A stretch of 64,000 nucleotides of DNA from an uncultured virus (IMG/VR IMGVR_UViG_3300030104_003662) (lineage: Duplodnaviria > Heunggongvirae > Uroviricota > Caudoviricetes): the IMG/VR virus record IMGVR_UViG_3300030104_003662, positions 1 through 64,000 of that record; one strand, 5' to 3'. How positions within the stretch are numbered: position 1 is the stretch's first letter; each line of letters starts with the position of its first letter. The notes beneath the pieces were generated by a model, which had not been told where the DNA came from, did not search any database, and worked only from the letters and a program-made list of their open reading frames with translations. The position numbers and the translations under genes are program-made. Below are positions 3,266 to 30,687 of this stretch, piece by piece.

Positions 3266-4120
3266 ATGGGCCGTTCTCGTGACATTCAAATCTACGAAGT
3301 TGGTCCTCGTGATGGCTTGCAAAATGTTTTATTTGAAACAAGTACTTCTGACAAAGTTGATTTAATAACCAGTCTTCATAAGGCTGGTTTTGAAAATATG
3401 GAAATAACTTCTTTTGTACATCCAAAGTTAGTACCTAATATGTCAGATGCTGAAAAAGTATTTGAGCAAACTAAACACTTAGGTGACTTTGGAGTACTAG
3501 TACCTAATCAAAGAGGCTTTGAAAGGGCCAAATCGGTGGGAGCAAAGAAGTTTAATATATTCTTTTCACCCTCAAGAGAGTTTAATTATCGTAATTTAGG
3601 TAATAGTAACTTGTCTGAGATTCATTGGAAACTACAAAACATGCTTAAAGATGTAGACAGAGAAAATGTAAGAGCGTATATTTCCTGTGCGTTTGGCTGT
3701 CCTTTTGAGGGCAAGCCTTCTGAGCATGATTTGAAAGCAACTGCTGAAATTGCTGACGAATTAGCCAGTGATATTGTTTTATGCGACACTATAGGTAGTT
3801 GTCATCCTTCTCTTATGCGTTGGACTTTAGACAAAGTGAAAAAAGTAGATGCTGATATTGGTCTACATATGCACCACAACTCTAAAAGGACTAATGATAT
3901 ATTTGCAAATATAAAATCTGCATTTGAGTTTGGCATAACAAAGTTAGACTCTAGTATAGGCGGACTTGGAGGTTGCCCATTTATCCCCGGCAGCGGTGGG
4001 AATCTATCAACGAATGCTTTGATAAATTGGGCAAATGACAATGGTTATGAAACAGGAATAGAACTTCGTGATTTGATACCAGCAACAGATTGGGTATCAA
4101 AGTTTGATGCAATAGTCTAA
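3266..4120 (+). CDS. hmgL: Hydroxymethylglutaryl-CoA lyase (DRE-TIM metallolyase), auxiliary metabolic gene
   Basis: IYEVGPRDGLQN, EITSFVHPKLVP, AYISCAFGCPFEG, LCDTIG, HMH metal ligands and GLGGCPF catalytic-Cys loop are all present. Confidence 0.93.
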   Translation: MGRSRDIQIYEVGPRDGLQNVLFETSTSDKVDLITSLHKAGFENMEITSFVHPKLVPNMSDAEKVFEQTKHLGDFGVLVPNQRGFERAKSVGAKKFNIFFSPSREFNYRNLGNSNLSEIHWKLQNMLKDVDRENVRAYISCAFGCPFEGKPSEHDLKATAEIADELASDIVLCDTIGSCHPSLMRWTLDKVKKVDADIGLHMHHNSKRTNDIFANIKSAFEFGITKLDSSIGGLGGCPFIPGSGGNLSTNALINWANDNGYETGIELRDLIPATDWVSKFDAIV

Positions 4121-8798: not shown

Positions 8799-9011
8799 GT
8801 GGAAGATTGGTGGAGCATACTACTGACTGATATGTTAAAACAGTCAGAAAAAGATATTATGCATCTTGATGCTTTCGTAGACGAAAAAGACTCTTGGAAA
8901 GACATCTCATTATTGATGAATGCAGTAGACCATTATCGCTTTTTGCGACAGGCTTATGAAAACAGAGGCAGTGGGAATGTACATGTCGAAGTCAGATTTG
9001 TCACCGAGTGA
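8799..9011 (+). CDS. Hypothetical protein
   Basis: CTTAAG box ends 24 nt upstream of the GTG; possible tag variant WWSILLTDMLK-Q. Confidence 0.55.
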   Translation: MEDWWSILLTDMLKQSEKDIMHLDAFVDEKDSWKDISLLMNAVDHYRFLRQAYENRGSGNVHVEVRFVTE

Positions 9012-10349: not shown

Positions 10350-10928
10350 ATGGTGCCAGCACAAGACCAACAATATAGAGAACACGACCAAGCAGAAATA
10401 CGCTTGATGGGATTAATCTTAACACAAGCGGTATCTATCGGAATGGCAATTGGACTATTCGATGCTAATCTATGGATAGATTTAGAAGACCCGGTGGTAA
10501 ATGGAGTAACTTATTCTATGGCAGCATTTGCTGTACAAGGACTTGCTTACTATCTTTTCAAGATGTTTTTCCAACAGGGTATGGATGATAAAGCAAGAAT
10601 GGCTGCTCAAGAGCGAGAGCGCAGAAACCGATACAGAAGCATGGAGTTTACTTTTGACCGTCGCCGCCAAGATATGGAAATGCGTATGCAAGAAGCACAA
10701 CTTGAGACTGAGTTAAAGTGGATGGAGGAAAACCCCGGTAAGACTCCGCCTTGGGTAGAGGAAAGATTGTACAACAACAACGATTTTGATAGTTCTAACT
10801 TTGTACCTAACACTTCTATAACAGATTCTAAAGAGCCGCTTAGCCTAGGCTTAGACTTTGGTGACAAAGAGGCTGCCCGTCTTAAAAAAGACGGTACGCC
10901 CGATAAGCGTTATCAAAAGAAGGGGTGA
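10350..10928 (+). CDS. Two-TM membrane protein with cytoplasmic coiled coil
   Basis: LMGLILTQAVSIGMAIGLF and VTYSMAAFAVQGLAYYLF helices, then a charged heptad-like region; GGTGAGAGGG RBS. Confidence 0.75.
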   Translation: MVPAQDQQYREHDQAEIRLMGLILTQAVSIGMAIGLFDANLWIDLEDPVVNGVTYSMAAFAVQGLAYYLFKMFFQQGMDDKARMAAQERERRNRYRSMEFTFDRRRQDMEMRMQEAQLETELKWMEENPGKTPPWVEERLYNNNDFDSSNFVPNTSITDSKEPLSLGLDFGDKEAARLKKDGTPDKRYQKKG

Positions 10929-10934
10929 TTCTTT

Positions 10935-11183
10935 TTGGGCCGTATTTTCAAAACTCCTTCTGACGACACGGTAGAAGAGACTTTGAGAATGATGCATACC
11001 GCTAACATGGTTGATGTAGCCTATGAAAGAGGGATGGGTTGGTTAAAAGTAATTGCATTTTCCATATTAACTGCATTTGTAGTAAGTGCTTATGAGTATT
11101 ATACTGATTGGAATCTTTGGGAGGATACTGGTAATTGGTTAAAAAAGACTTTACAAGGCTGGTCCGATGCAATTTTTGATTAG
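10935..11183 (+). CDS. Single-TM membrane protein with C-terminal amphipathic helix
   Basis: WLKVIAFSILTAFVVSAY; GGGGTGA RBS with TTG start. Confidence 0.75.
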   Translation: MGRIFKTPSDDTVEETLRMMHTANMVDVAYERGMGWLKVIAFSILTAFVVSAYEYYTDWNLWEDTGNWLKKTLQGWSDAIFD

Positions 11184-11191
11184 GTGATATT

Positions 11192-11914
11192 ATGTCAGCA
11201 ATGGGGAGTTCAGCACTTGTTGGGGGAATGGTATTCGCTCGTGAACTCTATCATTACTTTATTCCTCGTAGAGTTGGAGTGTACGGTCCACCTATGACTG
11301 GTAAAACTACACTTGACAGATACATGACAACTCCCGGTGAAATGGAGGAAATACCTGAAAGTGAGCGCACTAAGCACTTTAGAATACCCGGAATGAATCG
11401 TTTTTTGCTCCCTCGCCCTACACGCAAGCGTATAAGTTGGAAAGGAGATAAGCGCGTGGTTTACTCTTCTGACATTGGTGGCGATGAGCGTTTTTGGAAT
11501 CTTTGGATAGATGATATGGTTAATCGTAATGTAGAAGCAGTGTTGTTTATGTTTGACGATAGAGCAACTAAAGGAGGCAGTGATGCAATCCAGTCAGTAG
11601 GTGGTTTCAAATATCTTGTAGATGCAATTCTTCATCGTCAGTATCGCTATCGTAAGTTTAGGTCTTGGCTTAGAGGTAAAAAATACTGCCCTAAAGTAAT
11701 CATGCTTGTTGCTAACAAAGCAGATAATTGGTGGGATGATAATGCAAATGTACTTTGGCAGCAACAGCGCCTTGGTGAACATAAGATGTTTGACCCTTTT
11801 AGAGAAGACTTAGTGCGTTTGCAAAAAGCAGGTATACCTACGCGTAGAGGCATGATGGCTACAAGAATTGGTTGGAATGTAGAAAACACATTAATTGATA
11901 TACTAACAATGTAA
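11192..11914 (+). CDS. Small Ras/Arf-like GTPase
   Basis: G1 GPPMTGKTT, G3 DIGG(D)ERFWNLW, VLFMFD strand, G4 LVANKAD, G5-like MATRIGWNVE; hydrophobic N-terminal helix. Confidence 0.85.
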   Translation: MSAMGSSALVGGMVFARELYHYFIPRRVGVYGPPMTGKTTLDRYMTTPGEMEEIPESERTKHFRIPGMNRFLLPRPTRKRISWKGDKRVVYSSDIGGDERFWNLWIDDMVNRNVEAVLFMFDDRATKGGSDAIQSVGGFKYLVDAILHRQYRYRKFRSWLRGKKYCPKVIMLVANKADNWWDDNANVLWQQQRLGEHKMFDPFREDLVRLQKAGIPTRRGMMATRIGWNVENTLIDILTM

Positions 11915-11921
11915 GGAGGAA

Positions 11922-12965
11922 ATGAATATGGTAATGAACTTTGGATTCGGCGGCTCAGGTAGAGTACCTAGAAACGATGCTAATTTGGCAAATATGAGTG
12001 ATGCACATTTGATGGCGTTAGGTCAGCAAGGTAGTGCTAGTCACGCTCAGTTATTAGAAATGCAAAGTGCACAACAAGGGATGGCAGCGGCTGCTAGTAA
12101 GCAAAATATAGAAGTGCCCAAGGTTAACTTTTACCCCAGTCGTCACGCTGACCCTAGAAAGGCAAGAAAGCAAGACATTAAACAAGCCAGTAGGCTTCTT
12201 ACACCAACTAAGCGCAGTCTACTTAACCCCTTTAGGTGGCTTTGGGGTAACAAGTATCGTTATAATCGCCAAACCAGTCATTGTGTAATTGACGGTTGTG
12301 ACTGTGAAGAGTTGATTAAATATGATAATCTTTATACTAAGATTTGTGATGAAGAGACTGGTAAAAGTCTTTGGGAATTATATTGGAAAAACCCGGTAAC
12401 AGGTGCTCCCGAAGCCTTTGTTGCAAGAGAACAAGTAACTAATGGTAGACTAATGAAGGGTACATATTGCCCTGAACATTTACATCTTTATCATTTACTT
12501 TGCAAATGGCAGAATGAATCTGACAAAGACCACAATAAGACTAAGACTGGTATGAAAGAGATGGTAAAGAAGGGCGTTAGTACAATCGCTGTACCTATTG
12601 CTATTATTAAGAAGAAGGATAATACCCCTGAGTTGCTCAAAAAGTATGAGCCATTCTTTGAGCAATTAGAAAAAGACAGTAAAGTTCAGAACGGTATCAA
12701 CATACTACATTATAAAAATCCTGAAACAGGTATAAATGATGTGACTATGATTGTATTTGACCTTAGATTATTTCAAAAGGAAATTGCAGAACAAGGTTCG
12801 ACTCTTAGTGATGCGATTAGTAATTTAGGCATAATGCAAATGCAGAATAATAACGGTGCTGTAGAAGCAACGACGGGCGTAGGTTTGGCTAATGCTCAGC
12901 CCAATGCTGTTATCAATAGCGGCGTAGTGGGGCAAGCAGAGCAGATGACATTACCGCAACAATAA
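11922..12965 (+). CDS. Hypothetical protein with Cys/His cluster (putative Zn binding)
   Basis: CVIDGCDC ... YCPEHLHLYH; Gln-rich termini; AAGGAGG RBS. Confidence 0.7.
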   Translation: MNMVMNFGFGGSGRVPRNDANLANMSDAHLMALGQQGSASHAQLLEMQSAQQGMAAAASKQNIEVPKVNFYPSRHADPRKARKQDIKQASRLLTPTKRSLLNPFRWLWGNKYRYNRQTSHCVIDGCDCEELIKYDNLYTKICDEETGKSLWELYWKNPVTGAPEAFVAREQVTNGRLMKGTYCPEHLHLYHLLCKWQNESDKDHNKTKTGMKEMVKKGVSTIAVPIAIIKKKDNTPELLKKYEPFFEQLEKDSKVQNGINILHYKNPETGINDVTMIVFDLRLFQKEIAEQGSTLSDAISNLGIMQMQNNNGAVEATTGVGLANAQPNAVINSGVVGQAEQMTLPQQ

Positions 12966-12976
12966 AGGTGAATAAA

Positions 12977-13618
12977 ATGGGACTATTTGGAAATAACAAC
13001 GCACAGCAACAAAACGGACAGGCACTCAATTTAGGTGCTAGTAGTATGGGTATGCAATCTACTAACCCTTTTGCTACTCAAAATGGAATGATGCAACAAG
13101 CAGGTCAAAATCCCTTCATGGCTGGTATGGCCGGAGGCATGGGTATGAATGCTCAGCAAATGGGCCAGCAATCTATGCAACCTCCTTCTGAGGCAGAAAT
13201 ACAAATGGCATTAATGAAAAGCCTAGCACCTGCTGACCGATTTATTATTAGTCAACAAATGGGTACTTTCCTTTCAATGCTCAATGACCTAGTATCATTT
13301 TCAGTTTTAGAGATTCTAAAAGGTGCTACCTTTGTTATCAATGAAGATGAAGGTACAATGAAACTTGACATTACATCACTCCCTTCTAACTTACAGACTA
13401 TGAGTGCGGAAAATGTAACAGGTCAATTTAGTAATTTGCAAATGACAAGTCAGCAAAACATTCAACAAGCAGAAATGCAACAACAACAAATTATGGCATT
13501 TGCACAACAGTCTATGATGGGCGGTGCACTAAGTGCTGCTTTGGCTAATGAAGGCTTTATGGATAAAGCCGGTGGTGCTGCTGGCTCCTTTATGGGCAGA
13601 ATGATGGGTATGCGGTGA
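12977..13618 (+). CDS. Gln/Met/Gly-rich low-complexity protein
   Basis: AGGTGA RBS, ATG 12977. QQ/MG-rich termini flank a small globular core. Confidence 0.75.
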   Translation: MGLFGNNNAQQQNGQALNLGASSMGMQSTNPFATQNGMMQQAGQNPFMAGMAGGMGMNAQQMGQQSMQPPSEAEIQMALMKSLAPADRFIISQQMGTFLSMLNDLVSFSVLEILKGATFVINEDEGTMKLDITSLPSNLQTMSAENVTGQFSNLQMTSQQNIQQAEMQQQQIMAFAQQSMMGGALSAALANEGFMDKAGGAAGSFMGRMMGMR

Positions 13619-13622
13619 TACT

Positions 13623-13868
13623 ATGATACCAAAAGAAGGACCAATTATTGGACTTGCAAGTAGTACTATGAGTATATTTGCACCAAAGAAGAGCGTAATA
13701 GTAGATATGGTGATGGTTCAACTAATAGCCATTATAGTTACATTGGGTATTGTAATGGTAACAGGCTCAGGAACATTAGGTAGCGACACTATGTCTTACT
13801 TAGTCGCTGGACTCTTTGGTGCCTTCTTTATGCTCGGTAGTATCTATAGCCGAATCTCTAGCGTTTGA
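13623..13868 (+). CDS. Small two-TM membrane protein (holin-like topology)
   Basis: MVMVQLIAIIVTLGIVMV and YLVAGLFGAFFMLGSIY; GCGGTGA RBS. Confidence 0.75.
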   Translation: MIPKEGPIIGLASSTMSIFAPKKSVIVDMVMVQLIAIIVTLGIVMVTGSGTLGSDTMSYLVAGLFGAFFMLGSIYSRISSV

Positions 13869-14138
13869 CGATTCAACATGCCTACCCCATTTTTTTAATG
13901 GGCACTCAGAAGAAGCAAGCGAGACTTTTACTCTCATTTGACAACCACATTCAGTGCATCGGTTACTAGTGTGCTCCCAACTTGGGCAGACCATGCAAAT
14001 ATCCATTCTTATTTGTTTTATATCATTACCTACAAACCTTCTCATAAACACATCTCTACTGGCTCTTGTTAGGCTTTTTGCAGTCTCTATAGAAACAGGA
14101 ACTCCCATAATTTTAGGTGGAGAACGAGGTAATCTCAT
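13800..14138 (-). CDS. Cys-rich small protein (RxxICxxC..CxxCGC..K..L....CPxxKW family)
   Basis: RMDICMVCPSW..RCTECGCQMRVKVSLASSECPLKKW. The only convincing minus-strand gene; likely start ATG 14138. Confidence 0.7.
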   Translation of the reverse strand: MRLPRSPPKIMGVPVSIETAKSLTRASRDVFMRRFVGNDIKQIRMDICMVCPSWEHTSNRCTECGCQMRVKVSLASSECPLKKWGRHVESSNARDSAIDTTEHKEGTKESSD

Positions 14139-14198
14139 TACTCTACGCAATCGGTCTTTGTTCAAAAGGGTTATTCGTGTGCATGCTCTCGGAGCGTT

Positions 14199-14900
14199 AT
14201 GGGCGGTGAGCGTCAAACTAAGCGGTCATGCCCCTTCTGCCAGCACGAAGAGCGGGACCAGTTAGAACAAAACATAATCAATGGCATTACTGACATCAAG
14301 ATGTTAGACAAAGATATGGGTTGGAGAACTAATACATCTGAGCGACATATGAATAACCACGCAGGGGATTATCATAATAGTGCAAATCATAGTTGTATAG
14401 TATGTACAAGTGATGACCGTAAGCAATACGAAGTTGCTTACTTTGAAGGAGATAGGACTAGTGAAGACATAGCAACAGAACTTGATTGCAGCGAACAGTT
14501 AGTCTATCGTCATATGAAAAATCATTTCCAGCCTTTGGTCAAAAGAAGTGCTACTGCAATTGTTTCAGTCAAAGTTGGAGAAGAAGTTAACATACTTCGT
14601 AAAAATGTAGAAGGATTAAATGGAAAACTTTCTCAATTTATGGAGGAGACCAATATACATGACGATGGTGTTATCTCTGACATGGTTAGATTGCACAAAG
14701 AAGTTCGTGAAACTCTCAAAGACCTAAGCCAATACCAAGAGAAATGGGCAGAACCTAGTACTAATGTTGCCAATAATACTATCAATGTCTTAAAGGTGGA
14801 ACTGGGTAAGGAAAGTCCTGAAACTTGGAAAAGAGTCAAGGCTAAACTTTTGTCACAGGCTGATGGTGAAGTTAGTAAAGACATTTTAGATATAATATGA
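14199..14900 (+). CDS. Tandem Zn-HTH DNA-binding protein with coiled coil; putative terminase small subunit
   Basis: Two CxxC-HTH-RHMxNH repeats followed by helical oligomerisation-like segments; first gene of the unit leading to TerL. Confidence 0.55.
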   Translation: MGGERQTKRSCPFCQHEERDQLEQNIINGITDIKMLDKDMGWRTNTSERHMNNHAGDYHNSANHSCIVCTSDDRKQYEVAYFEGDRTSEDIATELDCSEQLVYRHMKNHFQPLVKRSATAIVSVKVGEEVNILRKNVEGLNGKLSQFMEETNIHDDGVISDMVRLHKEVRETLKDLSQYQEKWAEPSTNVANNTINVLKVELGKESPETWKRVKAKLLSQADGEVSKDILDII

Positions 14901-14909
14901 GTTGATTAA

Positions 14910-16499
14910 ATGCCGGGTAATATGAGTACAGGTTCTGATACAAGGATGTATAGTCCTCGTTCTGAGTCTATGCTTGGTTATACCAAGGATGAAGACGATT
15001 ACACTTATGGTATAGGTGACCCCGAAGCGATGGAGGCAGCGAAGGATAAGCGCATTGCTGAAAAAGATGCAGAAACACAGGCTTCTGATTTACCACATCT
15101 TACTATTGAAGTCCCTAAACCTGAGCCTGAGATGCCACCTATGATGCCGGGCATAGAAGAAGAAGAAGAAGAAGACCCTATGGCTGACCAATATCAAGAA
15201 GGTAATCAACTCAGCGCAATGACCGGTATGCCTGATACTGGTAATCTCAGCATTGGCAACGCAACGGGTACAATGCCAGCACCGGGCGGCATGCTTGCTA
15301 CAGGTGAGCCGATGGAGGATGCTTGGTCTAGTCTTATGAAAGAAGACGATAATGAAGAAAAAGATGACGAAGTTCCTGACGAGAAGTTTAGTAGAAGACC
15401 TCCTCCTATTGACCCTCAAGCAGAAATTAACAGGCTCAGAAGATTAGCAGACAGTAATGTTGCTGAAACAAGGGAGACCGGGGGTAAGTTTACTGCTCCT
15501 TTTGGCAAGCCTGATTACTTTACAACAGGCGAGCCAATAGATGATGCTTGGAGTAGTTTGATGAAAAACAGAGTAGACCAGTCACCTACTATTTACCAAA
15601 GACCTTCTGTACAAACTGCTAACCCACTCCCTCCACAATGCCCTACTTGTCAAGGTAAGATTCTAAGCCAACCTTGCCCTGATTGTGGCGCACCTGCTTC
15701 TCCACTTGCTGGTACGGCTCATGACAATACGGTTTCTACAGGCGAGCCAATTGATGACGCTTGGAGTAGTTTGATAAAAAGTAGACTTGACAAAGTTGGT
15801 GGCAAGGAATTGAAACCTTGGACTCAACCGCAATTCCGTATTCAGCCCGGTGGTGCTAACATATCTACTGCTACTTCTCGTCGCTCTAAGTTACACTCAA
15901 GATATTTACAACCCAGTAAAAAGCATGGACTTATGCGTAGTCCTCTTTCTGTTCATATGAGCCACCTTGGTGTTTCTACAAAGCAACCTCTCAAGTTATT
16001 TCCTGAAAAGTATAGACACCAAATGGGTACTATGGCTCGTCGTAAATTAATGGGTAACATACCTCAACCGATGTCAGGTCACGGCTTAAGTTCTGAAAGA
16101 ACATATAATCCTAAACCTCCTAAGATAAGTACTGGAGAAGGGTTGAGTATTAGAGCACCAACTGCTCCTAAATTAATGGGCCAGTCTTTGGCTAAGTCAG
16201 ATGACTTGACTAAAGTTAAAAAGCAACTAGATGAAGTTTCTAAAAAAATGGATTACATGCACTTTGCCCAAATGCGTAGGTTACTTAGACGCATGAAAGA
16301 ATCTATGGAAAATAGAGATAGACATAACAAGGCTGCTGTTTCAGCAGGTCCCGGTCAAAATAGAGAGGCAGGGCATCGAGAAGGCCAAGATAGTACTACT
16401 AGAAACGAAGGTGCCACAGAAGATATGGAAAATGACCCTAAGAACTGGGGCGCACCTTCTACTATGTTTGCAGCAAGAGGTAGTGGGAGGGTCGGCTGA
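14910..16499 (+). CDS. Putative internal head protein with three TGEP[MI][ED]DAWSSL[MI]K tags
   Basis: Tags at 15300-15341, 15525-15566 and 15738-15779; acidic N-terminus, CPTC..CPDC module, basic C-terminal half. Confidence 0.75.
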   Translation: MPGNMSTGSDTRMYSPRSESMLGYTKDEDDYTYGIGDPEAMEAAKDKRIAEKDAETQASDLPHLTIEVPKPEPEMPPMMPGIEEEEEEDPMADQYQEGNQLSAMTGMPDTGNLSIGNATGTMPAPGGMLATGEPMEDAWSSLMKEDDNEEKDDEVPDEKFSRRPPPIDPQAEINRLRRLADSNVAETRETGGKFTAPFGKPDYFTTGEPIDDAWSSLMKNRVDQSPTIYQRPSVQTANPLPPQCPTCQGKILSQPCPDCGAPASPLAGTAHDNTVSTGEPIDDAWSSLIKSRLDKVGGKELKPWTQPQFRIQPGGANISTATSRRSKLHSRYLQPSKKHGLMRSPLSVHMSHLGVSTKQPLKLFPEKYRHQMGTMARRKLMGNIPQPMSGHGLSSERTYNPKPPKISTGEGLSIRAPTAPKLMGQSLAKSDDLTKVKKQLDEVSKKMDYMHFAQMRRLLRRMKESMENRDRHNKAAVSAGPGQNREAGHREGQDSTTRNEGATEDMENDPKNWGAPSTMFAARGSGRVG

Positions 16500-19413: not shown

Positions 19414-20895
19414 GTGGGAAATGTGGATGAACTCGTCAACGACATTGACATACAAATGTGCAAAAAGTCATTCAAATACTTCTTTACTGAGATTTTACAA
19501 TTCGACTATTCGGACCACCACCAGTGCTGGGAAGAAGGATTAGTAGAAAGTAACAGATATTGTGTAAAGGCAAGTCGTGACCACGGCAAGTCTGTATTTT
19601 TTATGAGTTATGCTCTTTGGATTGCTGCCTTTAATCCTAAAACCCACATTATGATATTCAGTCACAGTTTAGAACAGACCCTTGAACACATGCGGTTTAT
19701 CCGTAATAACATAGAAAGTAGCGATGTTCTTAGGCATTTGAAACCCAGTGGTGGAAAACCTTGGGCTAAGTCTTACTTTGAGTTCACTAACGGTAGCCGT
19801 ATGATGGCTAAGTCCGTTGGTGGAGCAACTCGTGGGTTTCACCCTGATGTAGTTGTATGTGACGATATTCTTTGGGGTACCACTGCTTCTGAATTACAAA
19901 GAGCAGCAGATTGGTTCTATACTGTCTTACTTCCAGTTCTGCACCACACAGGTCGTCTTATGATGGTCGGTACTCCTTTTAGTTACAACGACTTGTATGC
20001 AGAACTGGAAGACAAAGATGCCTTTAGAGTTGAGACATACCCTGCAATAAATGCATTGGGAGAACCTCTTTGGCCTACTAGATGGCCTTTAGATGCACTG
20101 AAAGTTCGTGAACAATCTATGCCAGCGATTAGATTCGCTCGTGAATATCTTTGCGAGCCTATCCACGACATGTCTAGTATGTTTCCTATGTCACTTCTTG
20201 AAAAAGCAAGAGATAGTGAACTGATATTATTAGACAGAGCAGAAGAAGAGTTTGATGAAGAAGGAGAAGCGGCTGGTGTATTTGGTCAGCACTTTATCGG
20301 ATGGGACCCTGCAATTGCATCTGATGCTAATGCTGACTACACTGCTATGACTATACTTAGAACATTGCCGGATAGCGAAGATAAACAAGTCATTTATGCT
20401 TTGAATGAAAAAGGACTAGGCGGTGCTGCTCAAAAGCGACAAATAGTTTTACTGAATAATCGTTTTCAACCTGACTTAATTGAACTTGAAGGTAATAACT
20501 TTCAAAGAATGTTTGCCGCTGAGTTACAAGAGATGAGGGATGATATACCTATCAAGACCTTTATGACAACAAAGCAACGCAAGGAAAGTATGTTTATGTC
20601 ATTATTGATGGCATTTGAGCAAGGTAAGATTAAAACTCCTTGGGGCAATGAACAAAGTAAAGAATATACTCGTACTCTTGAGACTCAACTTAGTCGATTT
20701 GGAATGCAGAAAAACGGCAGACTTGAATCTGTAGGCTCCCATGATGACTTGGCTATGAGCCTAGCACTGGCTAATTGGGCTACCAAAGAGTTCCGAGGAA
20801 ATGTAGTTGCGCTAGATGACTACATGCCCGGATTTGATAGCCTGTTTGGTGAGTCTGAACAAAATAATGTAGCAGGGGCTTGGTTCGTCGCTTGA
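19414..20895 (+). CDS. terL: Terminase large subunit
   Basis: Walker A ASRDHGKS, Walker B VVVCDD, coupling motif GTP, RNase H-like IGWDPA and HDDLAMS. Confidence 0.95.
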   Translation: MGNVDELVNDIDIQMCKKSFKYFFTEILQFDYSDHHQCWEEGLVESNRYCVKASRDHGKSVFFMSYALWIAAFNPKTHIMIFSHSLEQTLEHMRFIRNNIESSDVLRHLKPSGGKPWAKSYFEFTNGSRMMAKSVGGATRGFHPDVVVCDDILWGTTASELQRAADWFYTVLLPVLHHTGRLMMVGTPFSYNDLYAELEDKDAFRVETYPAINALGEPLWPTRWPLDALKVREQSMPAIRFAREYLCEPIHDMSSMFPMSLLEKARDSELILLDRAEEEFDEEGEAAGVFGQHFIGWDPAIASDANADYTAMTILRTLPDSEDKQVIYALNEKGLGGAAQKRQIVLLNNRFQPDLIELEGNNFQRMFAAELQEMRDDIPIKTFMTTKQRKESMFMSLLMAFEQGKIKTPWGNEQSKEYTRTLETQLSRFGMQKNGRLESVGSHDDLAMSLALANWATKEFRGNVVALDDYMPGFDSLFGESEQNNVAGAWFVA

Positions 20896-22242: not shown

Positions 22243-24009
22243 ATGGCAGAGCAAAAAAGCAGAGTAGGTCGAATACTAGAATCAATTACAAATCCATTCA
22301 GAAGAAGAAGAACTCCTGAGCCGCAAATGCCGCTTTGGACTACAGGTATTCAAGAGCCAGTTCTTGTACAAGGTATTACAATCCCTGCTTTGTATGCAGT
22401 TGCTAATGAAAATCTGATTCTCCGTACAGTTTTGACTACTCTTCAACAAGAGATATTCCGCAGAGGTTATTATTGGGAAAAGAAGTTTGTAAAAAAATGC
22501 ATTAATTGTGACGCTGAGTACCAACACGAAGTTGATGTTTGTAAAAAATGTGGTAATTCTGAGTTAGTAGAACCTGATGTTAATCAATTAGTATACCCTC
22601 GCTGGTTACTTGAGCAGAGAAACTCAATGGAACAGACCTTTATGGATGTTCTTAGAGAAATCGAATATGACTTGAACATTACTGATGACGCATTCCTTGT
22701 ACTTATCAAAGAATACTACATGGACCCTGATACTAACGAACTGATGTTTTACAGAGTCAAAGAGATACTTAGAGGAGACCCTATCTTTATGCGTATAATT
22801 GCTGATAAAAGAGGAGTTCGTGGTGGTAGATTTAGAGTATGTCCGGTTCATAGAGACCAAGTTAGGTCTTATAGTGAAGAGGAAAAGACTTGTCAAACAT
22901 GTGGTCATGACTTAGAAGATGTACATCATGTCAATACTGCTGGCTCAGGAAAAACTCAATACTACCTTAAGGGAGAAGTAATACATGTAAGTAAGTACCA
23001 ACCTTCTAAGTTATACGGTCGCTCGCCTGTTTCTACACTTTGGCGACAGGCTATGACTTTAACTGCTATGGATAATTACATGTATACTTCTTATAGCAAG
23101 CGCAGAACTCCTAAAGGTATGATTTCTGTAACGACTGATAACTTAGAATCAATGAAGTCGTTTTTCAAGAGCATGGATGAAAAGTTAGAGCGTGACCCTC
23201 ACTACATCCCTAAGATAGGAATAGAGTCTAATTCCGGTAGAGGCGGTGTCAACTGGGTTAAGTTTATGGATACACTAGAAGAGATGCAGTATATACCTGC
23301 AAGAGATGAAATGAGACAGCGTATCGCTGCATTCTATGGTGTATCAAATGTATTTATGATGGATACTGGAAAGTCCGGCGGCTTAAACAACGAAGGTATG
23401 CAGATTCTTGTTACTAACCGTGCGGTTGAGTTTGGGCACAAGGTATATGCCGAGCATCTATTCCCCCGATTAAATGAAGAGATGGATGTTACAGATTGGA
23501 AAATAACTCTTTATCCGAATGAAGAAGAAGACGAAGTTACCCGATTACGCCGTGATGAGATGGAGGTTAATATCGCGCAGCGTATGATGATGCTAGGTTA
23601 CAAGCCTGACTTAGTAGAAGATTCTGCTAACCGAGATATTCGTTTCATATACAAGCAACCTGACCCTGCCGAAGCCGGGATGCAGCAACCTCCTCCGGGT
23701 GGTATGCCTCCGGGCGGAATGATGCCGGGTATGCAAATGGGTGGAGGAATGGGCACTCCCGGCGCTTTGCCGGGCCGTAACATAAGTCCACAAGGTGCAG
23801 CGCAGATGGCAAGGCAAGCGCAGATGGGTCAACCGGGTGGCGAAGGTATGGGAATACGCACTCCGAGTAGCCCAGCAAGCCCTCAGAACAGAAGCACAAT
23901 GGGTTCAGGCTCTCCTGTTTCCAGTGTGCAACAAAGAGGCATGCCAATGGGCGGAGTTCAACAGGCTTCTCAGAATATATTAGACGCTCGTAATTTTAAG
24001 GGCGCATGA
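22243..24009 (+). CDS. Portal protein
   Basis: EVIHVSKYQPSKLYGRSPV and RQRIAAFYGVSNVFM portal motifs; position after TerL; two Zn-ribbon insertions; PGGM-rich tail. Confidence 0.9.
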   Translation: MAEQKSRVGRILESITNPFRRRRTPEPQMPLWTTGIQEPVLVQGITIPALYAVANENLILRTVLTTLQQEIFRRGYYWEKKFVKKCINCDAEYQHEVDVCKKCGNSELVEPDVNQLVYPRWLLEQRNSMEQTFMDVLREIEYDLNITDDAFLVLIKEYYMDPDTNELMFYRVKEILRGDPIFMRIIADKRGVRGGRFRVCPVHRDQVRSYSEEEKTCQTCGHDLEDVHHVNTAGSGKTQYYLKGEVIHVSKYQPSKLYGRSPVSTLWRQAMTLTAMDNYMYTSYSKRRTPKGMISVTTDNLESMKSFFKSMDEKLERDPHYIPKIGIESNSGRGGVNWVKFMDTLEEMQYIPARDEMRQRIAAFYGVSNVFMMDTGKSGGLNNEGMQILVTNRAVEFGHKVYAEHLFPRLNEEMDVTDWKITLYPNEEEDEVTRLRRDEMEVNIAQRMMMLGYKPDLVEDSANRDIRFIYKQPDPAEAGMQQPPPGGMPPGGMMPGMQMGGGMGTPGALPGRNISPQGAAQMARQAQMGQPGGEGMGIRTPSSPASPQNRSTMGSGSPVSSVQQRGMPMGGVQQASQNILDARNFKGA

Positions 24010-25203: not shown

Positions 25204-28200
25204 GTGCGAGAAAGTCCCATTGACATTTTGAATAGGTCTCGTAAAACGCTATTAGAATCTATAGGCGACAATATAGGAAAGCACGACGCAAGTGCTGATT
25301 ATTTTTTCTCTGTACTAAGTGCTGAACGAGCCGGTTATATTATCAAATCAGAAGATGAAAGTTTGTTTAAGATGTCTTGTTTGATTATCAAAGAAGAGAT
25401 GCAAGAAGAATCACCCTACGGAACCTATCATCAAGAAGCCGGTCAAGAGTTAATGTCAGGTGGTGCTTATGATGACCAACGGGTAATCAATCCTAGACCT
25501 GACCAAAGTTTAACAGGTAGAAACTTAGAAATGGCACAAGGTGATGTAGACGATGCACATAAAAATCACAATTACTTTGACTACAGGTTTTTGCCATTAA
25601 TGCATGGCGCTCAATCAGAAGCAGGTCCTCAGATGCACCAAACTATTTCAGATTTTTATTTACATCCTTCTGATGCTTATGCAGAGTCAAGAAGTCAAAT
25701 TGATGGTAGAAAAGAGATGGCTTGGGAGGACCACCACACAGAAGGCCCTCATGATTTTTTGCGTAACCCTCATCATTATGGTAAGTTAACTGGAGAAATG
25801 ACAAATCATAGTCTTTACAAAAGTCATTATGATGATTGGATAAAGTCTAACGACGGGTTAAAAGAACAAATCAAAGAACAATTTCCAAACGCCACTGATG
25901 ATGAAATAGACTATGAATGTAAAAAAAGACACATGGAAGAAGCAAGGCAAGGTTGGTCTTCTGATGCGGTAGACGAAAATGGTATTCCACAAGGTCTAGG
26001 CTTGATGGATTATTTACTTGGACTTGAATGGTTAACTCCTTCTCAACGACACGAAGTATACGAACATATATCGCACAAAGGTACCAGTGACCCACATGAT
26101 TCGCTTAGATTAGATATAAGTCACTCTGCATTTACTGTTCCTAGATTAATTAGAAACTTTCACCAAAGATTTTCAGGCATGTATAACCATTGGATAAGAG
26201 ACCCTGATGAGCCGGGAGAACCTATACTTGCTAGGCCAAAAAATCTTAGTAAAAAGACAGTACCTAAACTTGAAGATAATTTTCATGCATTTGGTGCTGT
26301 ACCTAATGGTTACTCTAGGGCATTGAATCATATGAAAGAGCGAGCGCTAGTAGACGATTCTTTTTTACAAGAATCTATGGAAGGTTATGAAGACTTACCT
26401 GATGGCATGCCTTACATAGATAGCAAAACAGGTAAAATTAATTTTTCTAATAGCCAAGACAATGTAGGGAGAATGCGTAGGAATATGCTAATGCATTTGT
26501 TAAACTTAGATGTCAATACCGGTGAAATGTACAATGATAATGAACACCCTTATTATGACGATTGGAAAAAAAGTGAGTCTCCTTTTACAGATGAAGAAAT
26601 AAAGTCTATATTAGGTAACTCTCAAAAAAGAACTTTGCAAACTCAAGCAGGGAGAATAGCCCGTAATAATAGTATTTTTCATTATGGTACATTTTTAGAC
26701 CCTACCCATTGGCCCGAAGAATTAACCGAGGGTGAAAATAGAACTTTGGCTACTCATTGGCATGAGCCATTTTTTGGAAAAGGGGGAATGGGCAAACACC
26801 CTAATACTCTCTATAACTTATTACACGAACATAGTTTATTATACGGAGGAAAAGGCAAGTTAGAGCGTCATAGTAGTTTTGGCTCTGATGAAGGATTTAC
26901 TGACCCTTATGCGAACTTAGAAGAAGATGAAAAAGGTGGAATAAGCATAGATGACAGGGCTAATGAACTAAGTTTATTCTTTCAAAAAAACACAGGTACT
27001 GAGTTAGAAAACCAACCTGTTTCTATAGGTGGAGAGCAATTTACTGCAAAGACTCCTTTGCGAGTTTCACAAAATATAGGAATAAGGCATGGTAGTAATA
27101 GAAAAGGAGAAATCTATAACCACGGTGTACTAAATCTATTAGGACCATTTGGGCAAGCCGAGCCTGAGTTAACAGACACTAGGGTGAAGACTGGGAAAAA
27201 AGACGAAAGCGGTAGTCCTATTTATAGAGATGTAAAGCGCAGGGAGACAGGCGATATTAGAGATGCGGAATCTAACTTGCATCCCCATAATGTGTTTATG
27301 ACAGGGCAAGGGAATCGTGCTAGTTATGAAAGGCACGCTGCTTCTGCTAATGGTCCGTTTCATAATGAAGCAGCAAGAGGCCATTATGATGCGTTTATGA
27401 ATAACGATAATGAAACTATGAACGAGATGAAACTAAGAATAGCAGGTACTAGGAGTGGAACTTTACCTTGGTCTCATGCATTTGCTAGTAAAGGAGGAGC
27501 GCTGGCTTTTGAGCGACAAAGGAGAAAAAGAGCGTCTAAGTTCCATACAGTCGGTACCATGTTACATATGGGTGCTCCGCCACTTAGTCCGGGTAGAGGA
27601 GTTCATAATCTGACTTCACCTCGACCTGAAACTATTCCTACAGCCCATTCTGTAGATGTAGTAAACTCTCTTGCTAGAGATGCCACACCTTACGAAGGTG
27701 TAGATGAAATGCACCTTTCTGATTTATTCGATGAAGTTATGCATTTACAAACACAGATGCAAGAAGAACAAAGCCCTCAAAAAAGAGAACATATGCGTCA
27801 TATGTTAGAAAACTTACAACAAGAGTACAAAGACCTAGAAGCACAAAGTTATGCATTAGAAAGTCAAGAAGGCTCACTTATTGGCATGGAGGGTACTCAG
27901 CAAGATACCTTTGCAGATAAATTAAGAGGTGATGTAAAGGCAATTGGGCAAGCGGGTGGTATTTCAAGAGGAGTAGTTGAGGAGGCCATGCCCGATGCGT
28001 TTAATCCCGATGTTTTATCTTTAGAACAAATTGACGCTAATGTTAGGCAACTAGCCCGCATGGGTAATGACTTATTACAAATAGTACCACACGAAATGCA
28101 CGGTATCAGTACGATAGGTCCTAGTTCAGAACATACTCAAACCAAAGGTGTCACAAGTGGGAATATACCTTCTAAAGTAAAAGCGCACATACACAATAGT

Positions 28201-30657
28201 CCTAATACTATCAATGTGCAAGATTCGGCAGAAGAAGTTGCTGACATACTTGGCTTAGACTATGACCAACCGCATGCTAAGGAAACAGTGGATAGCCTAT
28301 TAGAAAAAATAAAAGGCAAAGTTCAAGAGAGTGGAGATGGGACTTTAGAGTTTCCAGTTATGACAGTTGCACAAATGTTAGGAACTAGTAATCACTATGG
28401 AGACTTTTCAGGTGATTTAAGAGACAAGGTTAGAGGCTTTGAAAGACTGCGTGCGAAAGACCGGAATGAAGCGCTAGTAAGAACTATACAAAGAGTTAAC
28501 CGCGACTTAAGTACTTATGACCCTCGACTCAAAGGTAAAGGTAGAACTGCAAAAGAAGGTGTAGGAGAACTCATGGCTGGACTTGGACTTGATTGGCATA
28601 CTGCTCATCATTCTGACCCAAGGTCAGAAACTGATATACGACCTCCTAACATTACTAATAACAAAACTGCAAAGTTACAATCTAAAATCTATAGAACATT
28701 GCAAAACTTAGATTCTGTTTTAATCAGTGACCCGCGAGTAGAGCCAAAAGAGATAACTTCGGTTGATGCTACCCGCATGGGTCTTGGGCCAGTTCCTGTT
28801 GATAGATTCGGACCTAATTCTTATTCAGTACAAAGTATCTATAATTCGACTGGTTTCAAACACGAGTTAGGAGACCAAGCAGATTTGTACCCTACATTTG
28901 ATTATAGAATACACAAGGATGGTAAAGTTGAGGTATTTCCTAATGATGCTCCATTTAACCTTGTACAACCTACTGAGGACTTTTATGATTTAGCAGTACC
29001 TCATTTGAAACCTATATTGCATACAGAGGAGACAAAAAAACTTCACGGATTACACAGAATGGCACCTAACTTTTGGTTAAACAGTCTTGGTTATCGAAGG
29101 TTACAAAACCCAGTAGACATTGCTAAGTCCAATATGGACCTTGCTGCATTGACTAACCCTGATGTAATTCGCAAGGAACTTGGTAAAGATATACCTTTGT
29201 TACAACCAATGCATCGCATTTTTGAAATCGAAGACCTTGAACACCTTCGTGGATTTACAGGAGACTGGATTGTTTCTGCAATGCCAAAGGGTGAAAGGGG
29301 CTTTGTTAAAAAAGAAGATGATGACATTACATCTCCTTCGTTCACGCTATCAGATGAAGATAAAACTAACTTTGGAAAAGTCACCGATAAAGATTTCCAA
29401 GTAGATGTAGTAAAGACAGAAGAAGGTTACTATATCTTTGATGTAATAGAATACGATGGTAAAGAAGTTCATGATACTTTACTTGACGACCGTATTAAGA
29501 TACTAAGAGGCGGAATGGAGGGTATTGAAAATATACATGTCCCTTCTGCAAGTGATACTCGTTTAACAGACGACGCTGGTTTAGAACTTACTGTTGAAAA
29601 CTTACAAGAAGATAACGAGCAATTATTGATGCGTGATGCTAAGTCTACCTACATGGTAGGTGAAATGCGACATCCTAAGTGGGTTTTGTTATCTCCGGGC
29701 AACGATGTCGTACTTGTAGTACTTGAGCGTAGAGGAAATGGACCTTACACATATAGACTAGGTACAGGTCCAATTACTCAAGAAGAAGAATTAGGCTCTC
29801 GTGGGGTTGAGTTGAACGGAGATACATACATGGATATGGGAGCGGCCTTTGACAGTTCTGAAAAGTACAAAGAAGGTGACCATGTAAGAGTCAATGTCAG
29901 TAATGTAGGTGTTACAGAAACTACTAGCGGTCAGAAGTTATACAATGTAAGCGGCTCTGAAATACAAGAAGAAGCAGAAGGAGAAGGATTAGTAAGCCAA
30001 GAGACGCTTGGAATACTCGCTAAGTCTGAAACAGAACAATGGTTATGTGAAGTTTCAAGGTCTCCTTCGGGTGTTAGAATAACTATGCCACAAGGTGATG
30101 TCATTTACAAGACTACTCAAACAGGTTCGATTTGGACTGTGCATAGCCCTTTGGCACCTAATCATTATCTCATTCGTTTGTCTGAAAGTCAAAGGCAATA
30201 CTGGTCACCTGTGGCTGGAGCAATGCTCAAGGCTAACTTGGAAATTGCAGAAAAAGAAGAAGTTCATGAAACAGAAGGAGACTCAAAGCCACTCATTCCG
30301 CCTAAAAAGGTTGAAGGTACTGATTTTTGGAATAAACAAAAGAAGCAGAAGATTCTAGTTAAAGGTGCAATGTTACTTGAAAGGATGATGAAAAGTGGAG
30401 CAGGTTTAGTCGGGCAATCTAGTACAGGTACTATGGGCCTAGGAATAGATTATGCTACTCCTATAGAATCACCTACTGGTCCGACAAATCTAAACGACTC
30501 TAAGACAATGCCGGACTATGATAACAAAAAGAGGCCGGGAGAAGATTATTCTATAGAACCGAAAACAGAGGACTCCGAAGATACAAAGCACTTGGTAGTA
30601 CCAGTAGAAGGTGGTACTTTAGAAGTAACAAGAGACACTGCTTCATTCCGTACTTGA
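25204..30657 (+). CDS. 1817-aa putative internal head protein with degenerate ATP-dependent DNA ligase (NTase+OB) domain
   Basis: WIVSAMPKGERG (motif I position), YYIFDVIEYDG..LDDRIKIL (IIIa), EQLLMRDAKSTYMVGEMRHPKWVLL (IV/V), then OB-like strands; located between portal and protease. Confidence 0.7.
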   Translation: MRESPIDILNRSRKTLLESIGDNIGKHDASADYFFSVLSAERAGYIIKSEDESLFKMSCLIIKEEMQEESPYGTYHQEAGQELMSGGAYDDQRVINPRPDQSLTGRNLEMAQGDVDDAHKNHNYFDYRFLPLMHGAQSEAGPQMHQTISDFYLHPSDAYAESRSQIDGRKEMAWEDHHTEGPHDFLRNPHHYGKLTGEMTNHSLYKSHYDDWIKSNDGLKEQIKEQFPNATDDEIDYECKKRHMEEARQGWSSDAVDENGIPQGLGLMDYLLGLEWLTPSQRHEVYEHISHKGTSDPHDSLRLDISHSAFTVPRLIRNFHQRFSGMYNHWIRDPDEPGEPILARPKNLSKKTVPKLEDNFHAFGAVPNGYSRALNHMKERALVDDSFLQESMEGYEDLPDGMPYIDSKTGKINFSNSQDNVGRMRRNMLMHLLNLDVNTGEMYNDNEHPYYDDWKKSESPFTDEEIKSILGNSQKRTLQTQAGRIARNNSIFHYGTFLDPTHWPEELTEGENRTLATHWHEPFFGKGGMGKHPNTLYNLLHEHSLLYGGKGKLERHSSFGSDEGFTDPYANLEEDEKGGISIDDRANELSLFFQKNTGTELENQPVSIGGEQFTAKTPLRVSQNIGIRHGSNRKGEIYNHGVLNLLGPFGQAEPELTDTRVKTGKKDESGSPIYRDVKRRETGDIRDAESNLHPHNVFMTGQGNRASYERHAASANGPFHNEAARGHYDAFMNNDNETMNEMKLRIAGTRSGTLPWSHAFASKGGALAFERQRRKRASKFHTVGTMLHMGAPPLSPGRGVHNLTSPRPETIPTAHSVDVVNSLARDATPYEGVDEMHLSDLFDEVMHLQTQMQEEQSPQKREHMRHMLENLQQEYKDLEAQSYALESQEGSLIGMEGTQQDTFADKLRGDVKAIGQAGGISRGVVEEAMPDAFNPDVLSLEQIDANVRQLARMGNDLLQIVPHEMHGISTIGPSSEHTQTKGVTSGNIPSKVKAHIHNSPNTINVQDSAEEVADILGLDYDQPHAKETVDSLLEKIKGKVQESGDGTLEFPVMTVAQMLGTSNHYGDFSGDLRDKVRGFERLRAKDRNEALVRTIQRVNRDLSTYDPRLKGKGRTAKEGVGELMAGLGLDWHTAHHSDPRSETDIRPPNITNNKTAKLQSKIYRTLQNLDSVLISDPRVEPKEITSVDATRMGLGPVPVDRFGPNSYSVQSIYNSTGFKHELGDQADLYPTFDYRIHKDGKVEVFPNDAPFNLVQPTEDFYDLAVPHLKPILHTEETKKLHGLHRMAPNFWLNSLGYRRLQNPVDIAKSNMDLAALTNPDVIRKELGKDIPLLQPMHRIFEIEDLEHLRGFTGDWIVSAMPKGERGFVKKEDDDITSPSFTLSDEDKTNFGKVTDKDFQVDVVKTEEGYYIFDVIEYDGKEVHDTLLDDRIKILRGGMEGIENIHVPSASDTRLTDDAGLELTVENLQEDNEQLLMRDAKSTYMVGEMRHPKWVLLSPGNDVVLVVLERRGNGPYTYRLGTGPITQEEELGSRGVELNGDTYMDMGAAFDSSEKYKEGDHVRVNVSNVGVTETTSGQKLYNVSGSEIQEEAEGEGLVSQETLGILAKSETEQWLCEVSRSPSGVRITMPQGDVIYKTTQTGSIWTVHSPLAPNHYLIRLSESQRQYWSPVAGAMLKANLEIAEKEEVHETEGDSKPLIPPKKVEGTDFWNKQKKQKILVKGAMLLERMMKSGAGLVGQSSTGTMGLGIDYATPIESPTGPTNLNDSKTMPDYDNKKRPGEDYSIEPKTEDSEDTKHLVVPVEGGTLEVTRDTASFRT

Positions 30658-30687
30658 TTATATAGTATGGTCATTCTCTATAGAAGC

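Follow-up and report, generated by a model that had tools for sequence, protein, structure and literature searches.

In a 64,000-nt stretch of DNA from an uncultured virus (bases 1-64000 of the 96,799-base IMG/VR record IMGVR_UViG_3300030104_003662, which is judged 91% complete), hereafter the window, six genes at positions 10350-13868 form a compact block around a gene for a divergent small GTPase. We refer to the genes as A to F and to their products by the same letters. From sequence and modelled structure we read the block as a self-contained, virus-encoded membrane machine switched by guanosine triphosphate (GTP), with egress as its possible leading role, and would give this reading a probability of roughly 45%. 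The broader proposal, that the six genes make up a membrane-associated module, is likely on the sequence evidence. The genes are as follows.

10350-10928, plus strand: gene A, 192 residues, ATG start with AGGTG upstream; the mechanical open reading frame (ORF) starts at GTG 10335.
10935-11183, plus strand: gene B, 82 residues, TTG start with GGTGA upstream.
11192-11914, plus strand: gene C, the GTPase, 240 residues.
11922-12965, plus strand: gene D, 347 residues, GGAGG upstream.
12977-13618, plus strand: gene E, 213 residues, ATG start (N-terminus MGLFG) with AGGTG upstream; the mechanical ORF starts at GTG 12968.
13623-13868, plus strand: gene F, 81 residues, GGTGA upstream.

All six ORFs lie on the plus strand with intergenic gaps of 6, 8, 7, 11 and 4 nt, and a Shine-Dalgarno-like 5-mer (GGTGA, AGGTG or GGAGG) stands within 25 nt upstream of every one of the six starts. 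The tight coupling through ribosome-binding sites that an earlier note on this DNA had described is thereby borne out. It is the placement of these motifs that led us to set the start of A at ATG 10350, as in the earlier note, and that of E at ATG 12977. Such a 5-mer is absent from the flanking genes up414 and dn529, and the flanking gene dn233 has only GGAG. A scan for sigma-70 promoters and terminators is uninformative for an archaeal virus.

The central evidence comes from protein C. Its sequence reads as the Ras-superfamily (TRAFAC) motif order G1, G3, G4 and G5, and the motifs that the earlier note had quoted (GPPMTGKTT, DIGG, NKAD and the stretch DIGGDERFWNLW) are all present in it. The elements that the argument uses are listed here.

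11195-11260, plus strand: N-terminal helix (residues 2-23), predicted in the AlphaFold2 (AF2) model and moderately hydrophobic.
11285-11311, plus strand: G1 or P-loop, GPPMTGKTT (residues 32-40); G32, G37 and K38 invariant.
11471-11506, plus strand: G3 and switch II, DIGGDERFWNLW (residues 94-105, with DIGG at 94-97); D94 and G97 invariant, W105 at least 90% conserved, Asp98 at the position of the Arf catalytic Gln.
11624-11695, plus strand: polybasic stretch before strand beta5 (residues 145-168), with nine Lys/Arg and no Asp/Glu.
11714-11725, plus strand: G4, NKAD (residues 175-178), the guanine-specificity motif; N175 and K176 invariant, D178 at least 90% conserved.

Conservation was taken over 23 sequences that span all lineages, in which L41 and D122 are invariant as well. 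The NKAD motif implies guanine specificity. The G5 element reads MAT in the window protein and SA[KLRQ] in distant members. The AF2 model of C (predicted local distance difference test, pLDDT, 64.8; predicted template modelling score 0.67) has the canonical order of strands and helices behind the N-terminal helix. A Foldseek search of the PDB with this model returned at least 500 matches at E<=0.001, every listed row being a small GTPase, and re-alignment with VIA-align placed all 1000 chains at Z>=8 to the model. We regard a small-GTPase fold for protein C as very probable on the strength of the model.

The family to which C belongs is a small one. Taken alone, C has no match in Pfam (E<=1), PHROGs, NCBIfam, PADLOC or the PDB sequences. 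Its 472 homologues come from marine metagenomes, two among the 120 listed being named 'GTPase SAR1 family protein' by their source, and 171 viral contigs carry relatives. When 1.84 billion representative proteins were searched with a profile, only 87 clusters came up at E<=0.001, and the 15 of them that were scanned with Pfam held no standard cellular small GTPase, which makes the family a narrow one that stands well apart from mainstream small GTPases. Longer or fused forms of C were absent from 7,996 scored candidates, which is weak evidence. Searches with tblastn of C and of D against 50,697 phage records gave no match, and the result for C, with the lack of a PHROG family, is consistent with the earlier remark that small GTPases are unusual in tailed viruses.

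Within the superfamily, the affinity of C is with the Arf family. Nine of the top ten VIA-align rows for the C model are Arf-family proteins (Z 15.4-16.4), led by GerdArfR1 (Z 16.4, root-mean-square deviation 2.9, 161 residues aligned), Arl2 (16.2), Arf1 (15.9), Arl6 (15.9), Arl3 (15.8) and Arl8b (15.7). A RagA-like chain follows at 15.3 and Rab and Ras proteins at about 13, so that Arf proteins lead by 2-3 Z units, on a model of medium confidence. A comparison by sequence used profile A3, the family profile made without those members that themselves match Pfam Arf. Against the PDB it gave 8oun_A at 4.3e-6, Arl8A at 1e-4, Rab33B at 1.2e-3 and KRas at 0.014 or weaker, and the alignment with 8oun_A takes in the N-terminal helix of GerdArfR1. 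A preprint (bioRxiv 10.1101/2024.02.28.582541) describes 8OUN as this Asgard Arf-related GTPase. Among the 15 distant relatives scanned, P0203 (36.2 bits) and P0204 (36.5 bits) pass the Pfam Arf cut-off of 22.3 and five more score below it. P0203 also passes Pfam SRPRB (26.2 bits against 25) and bears the source name SR-beta; it was not found in viral contigs, and it, P0204, P0199, P0162 and P0158 lie on short single contigs. In the window protein the LW pair of switch II is kept, and the catalytic Gln of the Arf motif DxGGQ is replaced by Asp98. The Arf-like character with Asp at the catalytic position, first noticed from the letters alone, agrees with both profile and modelled structure, in which Arf is nearest. 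Protein C is probably a very divergent small GTPase with Arf-family affinity that lacks some of the defining features of that family, as far as sequence and model go.

Two elements of C could bring it to a membrane. The polybasic loop is retained throughout the family, with 5-10 Lys/Arg (median 8) in the corresponding 24 residues of 165/165 homologues from three lineages, against the background of an overall Lys plus Arg fraction of 0.163 in protein C. We infer from this that the stretch is a candidate lipid-binding patch. The other element is the hydrophobic N-terminal helix claimed at the outset. The helix itself is predicted, at residues 2-23, but its hydrophobicity is only moderate: no 19-residue window reaches 1.0, the hydrophobic moment is 0.31 at a mean hydrophobicity of 0.33, and 17% of shuffled sequences reach that moment. 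The residue that follows DxxG varies among 81 window-lineage sequences (Glu in 32, Gln in 28, Asp in 10, His in one, with 10 unmatched by the pattern). Because the position of the Arf catalytic Gln varies in this way, slow hydrolysis or catalysis by a partner is suggested.

The genes around C supply integral membrane proteins. Protein A has one clear transmembrane segment (Kyte-Doolittle mean over 19 residues 1.94) and a second, weaker aromatic hydrophobic segment (1.20), after which comes a 60-residue charged stretch with 13 Lys/Arg and 13 Asp/Glu. Protein B has a single transmembrane segment at residues 34-52 (1.82), preceded by a conserved N-terminal segment MGRIF and followed by an acidic tail rich in Trp and other aromatic residues. 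In F there are two segments (2.57 and 1.64), and two are found in 78/81 family members. Of the topologies first proposed, one transmembrane segment for B and two for F hold, and for A one of the two is clear and the other only weak. All three proteins are of holin-type size and transmembrane content, but none has a PHROG or Pfam holin match and no endolysin accompanies them; holins are too diverse for such an absence in sequence to decide the matter. F is a lineage-specific accessory of holin-like size and the most holin-like product of the block.

The remaining two partners are orphans. In 30 cross-lineage sequences of D, residues P78, P95, C121, G125, G175, T181, Y182, C183 and P225 are invariant and H186 is conserved in about 90%, in keeping with the original description of a Cys/His protein. 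A second Cys follows C121 by 3-7 residues, at a position that depends on the lineage, and the pattern C121, C126/C128, C183 and H186 (C...C / C..H) suggests a candidate zinc site. The AF2 model of D has a pLDDT of 71.2, with core blocks at about 90 or above. Its only counterpart in BFVD was an unnamed viral protein of 213 residues (3.4e-5, low TM-score), and among the 120 listed of its 997 homologues none has a Pfam domain or a functional name. By sequence and model D is a soluble Cys/His protein of no recognised fold. Protein E proved to be the low-complexity protein that had been described, with 14% Gln, 13% Met and 11% Gly; low-complexity flanks surround a conserved central domain, and a hydrophobic segment lies at the C-terminus. 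The idea of a roadblock or longin domain in E was dropped, the sequence reading mostly as helix-type segments with one hairpin. For D and E the ESM Atlas gave no usable match and no model. A complex prediction for C (A3) with the D core (A4, residues 60-300) scored 0.02 against a mark of 0.32, which is no answer and weighs neither way. Neither D nor E has a recognisable fold or family, and their functions would be new whatever the cassette does.

We next consider how constant the association of these genes is. The earlier note had named synteny in related viruses, beforehand, as a point on which its proposal could fall. Over the 80 best viral loci, whose GTPases are 63-99% identical, genes C, D, E and F together with the downstream helix-turn-helix gene keep the same order and orientation in 80/80, and A and B do so in 79/80, the single miss being cut by the end of the locus, so that the proposal survives on this point. 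These loci were selected through the GTPase, so the counts show linkage and not prevalence among all magroviruses, the virus group discussed below. Over the same loci GTPase identity stays within 63-99%, against lows of about 25-35% for the neighbours. The median ratio of nonsynonymous to synonymous substitution rates (dN/dS) is 0.076 for A, 0.051 for B, 0.020 for C, 0.020 for D, 0.057 for E and 0.144 for F, as medians over pairs with 0.05<dS<1.5 (7-34 of 120 sampled pairs per gene), many pairs being saturated. All six genes are under strong purifying selection.

This conservation bears on the alternative that the block serves superinfection exclusion or takeover of the host surface, its membrane proteins and switch altering the envelope or blocking receptors or DNA entry. 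Small membrane proteins are typical of phage exclusion systems, and viruses as abundant as these, in which the block is conserved, must often meet co-infection. Genes of this kind, however, are usually early and variable, whereas those of the block, which are sited on the structural arm, rank with the best conserved in their region; PADLOC returned no defence family for the six proteins at E<=0.1; and a five-part machine with a GTP switch seems elaborate for the task. We consider exclusion quite improbable.

Beyond the close loci, distant GTPases led to two further lineages, one P0128-like (39% identical to the window C; four contigs) and one P0148-like (30%; 140 contigs, of which 80 were kept). 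With hidden Markov models (HMMs) from the window lineage, A and D are recognised in the P0128-like lineage alone (A in L082-L085). Both lineages nevertheless share the arrangement: first comes a membrane protein bearing two hydrophobic segments together with a basic helix, next a protein of about 73 residues that has one transmembrane segment and an aromatic tail, then the GTPase, and after it a Cys/His protein and one rich in Gln, Met and Gly that begins MG[LV]FG. Scored by position and simple features over 84 distant loci, some of them cut at an end, B is present in 83, A in 81, D in 78 and E in 77. The positional analogue of A has 2-3 hydrophobic segments in 76/84, the distant D carries G[TS]YC..H in 77/78, the distant E starts with MG[LV]FG in 66/77, and the aromatic tail of B is visible in the cross-lineage rows. 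In the window lineage the block stands directly upstream of the packaging genes; in the P0148 lineage it follows the capsid genes, and in the P0128 lineage the chaperonin gene. Since it recurs at other genome positions in distant lineages, the five-gene core A to E moves as a unit.

The same positions suggest that the block might act as a morphogenesis helper, with the GTPase as a factor tethered to the membrane that serves assembly or packaging, either by positioning procapsids or by controlling how heads or tails are put together, with no remodelling of membranes. In all three lineages the block lies among virion genes; in the window lineage a small-terminase-like gene comes after it, and in the P0148 lineage it follows the capsid genes. 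Against this, integral membrane proteins make up three of the six products, none of the six matches a PHROG head, tail or packaging family, and the assembly of tailed viruses is not known to need membranes or small GTPases. A role confined to assembly is accordingly improbable to us, to about the same degree as exclusion.

A related group of 43 among the 80 loci (L067 and 42 others, L030, L037-L046 and L048-L079) carries an additional ORF of 66 residues of the AbrB/MazE (SpoVT-AbrB) type (L067:6740-6940; PF04014, 25.1 bits against 24.7). In 30 of these 43 the ORF falls between C and D, no more than 400 nt past the stop codon of the GTPase gene. The window and its closest relatives lack it, as do the 84 distant loci, and it may be a cassette-specific regulator.

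Every sizeable ORF in the window is on the plus strand. Landmarks assigned with Pfam and PHROGs are given below.

19414-20895, plus strand: large terminase.
22243-24009, plus strand: portal.
30667-32064, plus strand: prohead protease.
32080-33252, plus strand: HK97-type capsid protein.

A tail-tube-like protein is also encoded in the window, by the same two resources. The capsid protein is closest to those of HCTV-5, HVTV-1 and HCTV-1, haloarchaeal tailed viruses of about 102 kb (33% identity, E down to 4e-51). Beyond the window the genes of the record are mostly on the opposite strand; their products include a chaperonin of the thermosome type, nucleases of the ERCC4 and PD-(D/E)XK types, a DNA polymerase of family B, a clamp loader resembling RFC and an SNF2 helicase. 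The genome is thus laid out with terminase, portal, protease, capsid and the six-gene block on the plus arm, and chaperonin, polymerase, clamp loader, nucleases and helicase on the minus arm. Such an architecture is published (PMC5434244) for magroviruses, viruses linked to Marine Group II (Poseidoniales) archaea, which are abundant in the ocean, and by its gene content the window belongs to an archaeal tailed virus of the magrovirus type. Among cellular sequences the viral chaperonin is best matched in metagenome-assembled genomes (MAGs) of Poseidoniales and Thalassarchaeaceae, at 41-42%, apart from one match at 79%. The chaperonin behind that match lies on L168 (contig NZQM01000180.1, 9.6 kb), a short contig from a MAG that bears the bacterial label Parvibaculum; the contig is probably a mis-binned magrovirus fragment.

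We then asked what the presumed hosts encode, in a sample of 201 MAGs of the GTDB order to which a Candidatus Poseidoniales archaeon belongs. A profile of the viral GTPase matched 0/201 genomes, with a positive control on the virus record itself (G000) at 1.2e-119. Pfam Arf was likewise found in 0/201, and in 11/14 control genomes, Escherichia coli and Bacillus subtilis included. This contrast is larger than expected, and MAG incompleteness or a real loss of cross-matching GTPases could underlie it. OapB (ArvB) occurred in 0/201, the only positive controls being Haloferax volcanii and Methanosarcina acetivorans. These searches, negative in the genomes sampled, argue against the cassette being copied from a host operon or added to a host ArvABC system.

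These results matter for the alternative of vesicle or compartment formation in place of lysis. Protein C would then act as Arf/Sar1 or ArvA does, budding or tubulating the host membrane. The outcome could be a platform for assembly or replication, or vesicles outside the cell that serve, for instance, as decoys or to spread viral material, with D and E as regulator and coat-like parts. The closest relatives of C are vesicle-forming Arf-family switches, the flanks of E, low in complexity and rich in Gln, Met and Gly, are of a kind that could self-associate, and a virus whose sampled host order has no ArvB or Arf match would need a system of its own. PMC10927574 describes ArvA as a small GTPase, equipped with an N-terminal helix, that makes Haloferax form vesicles by acting together with two proteins of its operon, of which one is a zinc-ribbon protein; the order of a GTPase followed by a Cys/His protein is parallel. 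The same paper gives ArvA the annotation PF01926 and a similarity to Arf, and the window protein C matches neither PF01926 nor Pfam Arf. None of the six products matches OapB (PF09846, DUF2073) or the zinc ribbon DUF2072 in Pfam at E<=1, so that the partners D and E correspond neither to DUF2072/OapC nor to OapB. Tailed capsids, moreover, do not bud, and no coat-like fold emerged from the Foldseek PDB and VIA searches of D. On balance vesiculation is unlikely, although less so than exclusion or a role in assembly.

For the GTP-switched membrane machine that we favour, the following course of events may be proposed. GTP loading would bring C to the host cytoplasmic membrane, at its inner face, with the N-terminal hydrophobic helix and the conserved polybasic loop as points of attachment. 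There C would meet A and B and recruit D and E, and the assembled complex would deform or permeabilise the membrane. The variable residue at the catalytic position (Asp, Glu, Gln or His) could mean that C on its own hydrolyses GTP slowly or that a partner provides the catalytic residue, and the switch could serve as a timer. The late release of finished virions is a possible role for the block, tentatively preferred from sequence and analogy. Release is favoured for the place of the block on the structural arm with packaging genes adjacent (in the window lineage), which recalls the placement of lambda-like lysis cassettes. It is favoured further because no lysis gene is recognised among the scanned proteins, the membrane partners are holin-sized and the egress genes of tailed archaeal viruses are not known. 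The earlier statement that no lysis genes are evident holds for the part of the window ORFs that was scanned, with no lysis-annotated family among 28 proteins in Pfam or 19 in PHROGs. Taken in full detail, an egress system of archaeal tailed viruses that is a self-contained lysis machine timed by an Arf-like GTPase, whose GTP-dependent docking on two or three small membrane proteins recruits zinc and self-associating Gln/Met-rich proteins for membrane rupture or scission, is doubtful. Egress, an assembly site and exclusion are separated only by gene position and by the absence of a defence-family match.

Several observations weigh against reading the block as such a machine. The window protein C does not reach the Pfam Arf (PF00025) threshold, and neither the close-family profile A1 nor the single C sequence has a meaningful match among PDB sequences. 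The AF2 model of the GTPase is only of medium confidence, and its N-terminal helix is neither transmembrane-grade nor significantly amphipathic. With the residue at the catalytic position unconserved, C may hydrolyse poorly or be a static nucleotide-bound scaffold. The zinc site of D is proposed from four residues only, of which H186 is not universal, and the fold of D found no counterpart, the best Foldseek PDB match having an E of 1.1 and the best VIA-wide match a Z of 4.7 on a helical stretch of 46 residues. No block protein matches a lysis, holin, coat or defence family in Pfam, PHROGs, NCBIfam or PADLOC. F has neither an HMM match nor a positional analogue in the two distant lineages, and the position just upstream of the terminase holds in the window lineage only. 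The host assignment and the lytic lifestyle, finally, rest on published magrovirus work and on chaperonin similarity, not on culture.

The surroundings of the block were also inspected, and the first features downstream are these.

13869-14198, no strand: non-coding gap of 330 nt between the end of the block and the helix-turn-helix/zinc-ribbon gene dn233; the median gap from F to dn233 in 80 loci is 280.5 nt.
14199-14900: dn233, a protein of 233 residues with CxxC pairs and a helix-turn-helix (HTH_11 0.005, GerE 0.007).
14910-16499: a protein of 529 residues with three near-identical TGEP[IM][DE]DAWSSL[MI]K motifs at about residues 136, 211 and 282.

The gene dn233 has weak PHROG matches to a DNA-binding domain and a small terminase (0.007) and is kept in 80/80 loci; it is possibly a small terminase or a late regulator. 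The repeat of the 529-residue protein is presumably what the earlier note had called a cargo tag. A regular expression for the repeated motif matched only this downstream protein (three copies), and the six block products lack the tag, as had been stated. A small ORF at 8799-9011 begins MEDWWSILL. Elsewhere in the window, one ORF of 5727 residues (45352-62535) takes up about 18% of the genome. An ORF of 1817 residues within the structural module (25204-30657) shows an ATP-dependent DNA ligase domain that scores below threshold (22 bits against 26.2). On the viral plus arm at 3266-4120 lies a protein with an HMGL-like domain of the pyruvate carboxyltransferase type (Pfam 7e-24), possibly an auxiliary metabolic gene. 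On the minus strand beyond the window (L166:9711-12070; G000 73711-76070) the family B DNA polymerase is split into two adjacent, slightly overlapping ORFs of 439 and 347 residues, which could reflect a frameshift, a split gene or an assembly error. Ten sequencing runs listed as carrying the virus, from four studies, are all marine DNA, with no RNA run among them.

The literature on magroviruses, and on archaeal viruses and small GTPases, yielded no publication on this block. The main texts of three magrovirus papers (PMC5434244, PMC11706807 and PMC10160649) contain neither GTPase nor GTP. Their supplements, apart from gene tables S13 and S14 of PMC11706807, which lay outside the scope, contain no GTPase, GTP-binding, Arf or Ras-like term, the Sar1 strings being SAR11 and SAR116. 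Passages of a 2024 review (PMC10791045) state that tailed archaeal viruses disrupt the whole envelope and call the players in egress 'completely uncharacterized'. The cassette offers a concrete, cloneable candidate for this step, and since the hosts are uncultured, gene-level leads are all there is. The five-part block would also make a minimal system for the study of GTPase-driven membrane work. A divergent Arf-like switch with membrane partners of its own, outside eukaryotes and Asgard archaea and in a virus, bears on the origin and spread of Arf-type switches. If the proposed role is true, viruses of prokaryotes would here show their first case of release under the control of a small GTPase, by a machine brought by viruses among the most abundant of the surface ocean into hosts that have no Arf- or ArvA-type system in the sampled genomes.

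Comparison with known systems places the block as follows. With the Arf family (Arf1, Arl2, Arl3, Arl6, Arl8, Sar1 and the Asgard ArfR protein GerdArfR1, 8OUN/8OUM) protein C shares the G-domain fold as modelled, the N-terminal helix before beta1, a switch II of the form DxGG...LW with the Trp 11 residues after the Asp, and a G5 of the ATxxG type. It is longer, at 240 residues compared with about 180, the inserts lying in the region of switch I, ahead of beta5 (the polybasic one) and behind G4. It also lacks Gly2, has Asp for the catalytic Gln, and is encoded by a viral gene with partners of unknown families. The signal-recognition-particle receptor subunit SR-beta and Sar1 likewise combine an Arf-like G domain with a hydrophobic anchor at the N-terminus. 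In some members of the C family a His follows DxxG, as it does in Sar1 and SR-beta. The window C, in contrast, has no SRPRB match and no partner like SRX, a longin or COPII. The virus-encoded Rab of mimivirus (PDB 5xc5), found among the structural matches at Z 13.7, is a Ras-superfamily switch too, but a recognisable Rab taken from a eukaryotic host, whereas C is Arf-like, from an archaeal virus, and has no host counterpart among the genomes sampled.

Tailed-phage holin cassettes resemble the block in their small proteins with one or two transmembrane segments and charged tails, in their tight packing, and in their place on the structural arm beside the packaging genes, as in the window lineage. 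In phage lambda the S-R-Rz lysis cassette sits just upstream of the terminase genes. The block differs in having no endolysin and no holin family match. An endolysin may not be needed, since the presumed host is wall-less with an S-layer. To our knowledge, phage lysis cassettes contain no GTPase. ArvA-ArvB-ArvC (OapABC) of Haloferax volcanii and other Euryarchaeota (PMC10927574) also combines, in a conserved operon, a small GTPase bearing an N-terminal hydrophobic helix with small partners, one of them Cys-rich or zinc-binding, and acts on the cell membrane. The viral block adds integral membrane proteins and a Gln/Met-rich protein. What is new here is the form that a known kind of system, the small-GTPase membrane switch, takes in these viruses: a cassette of five to six viral genes with orphan partners.

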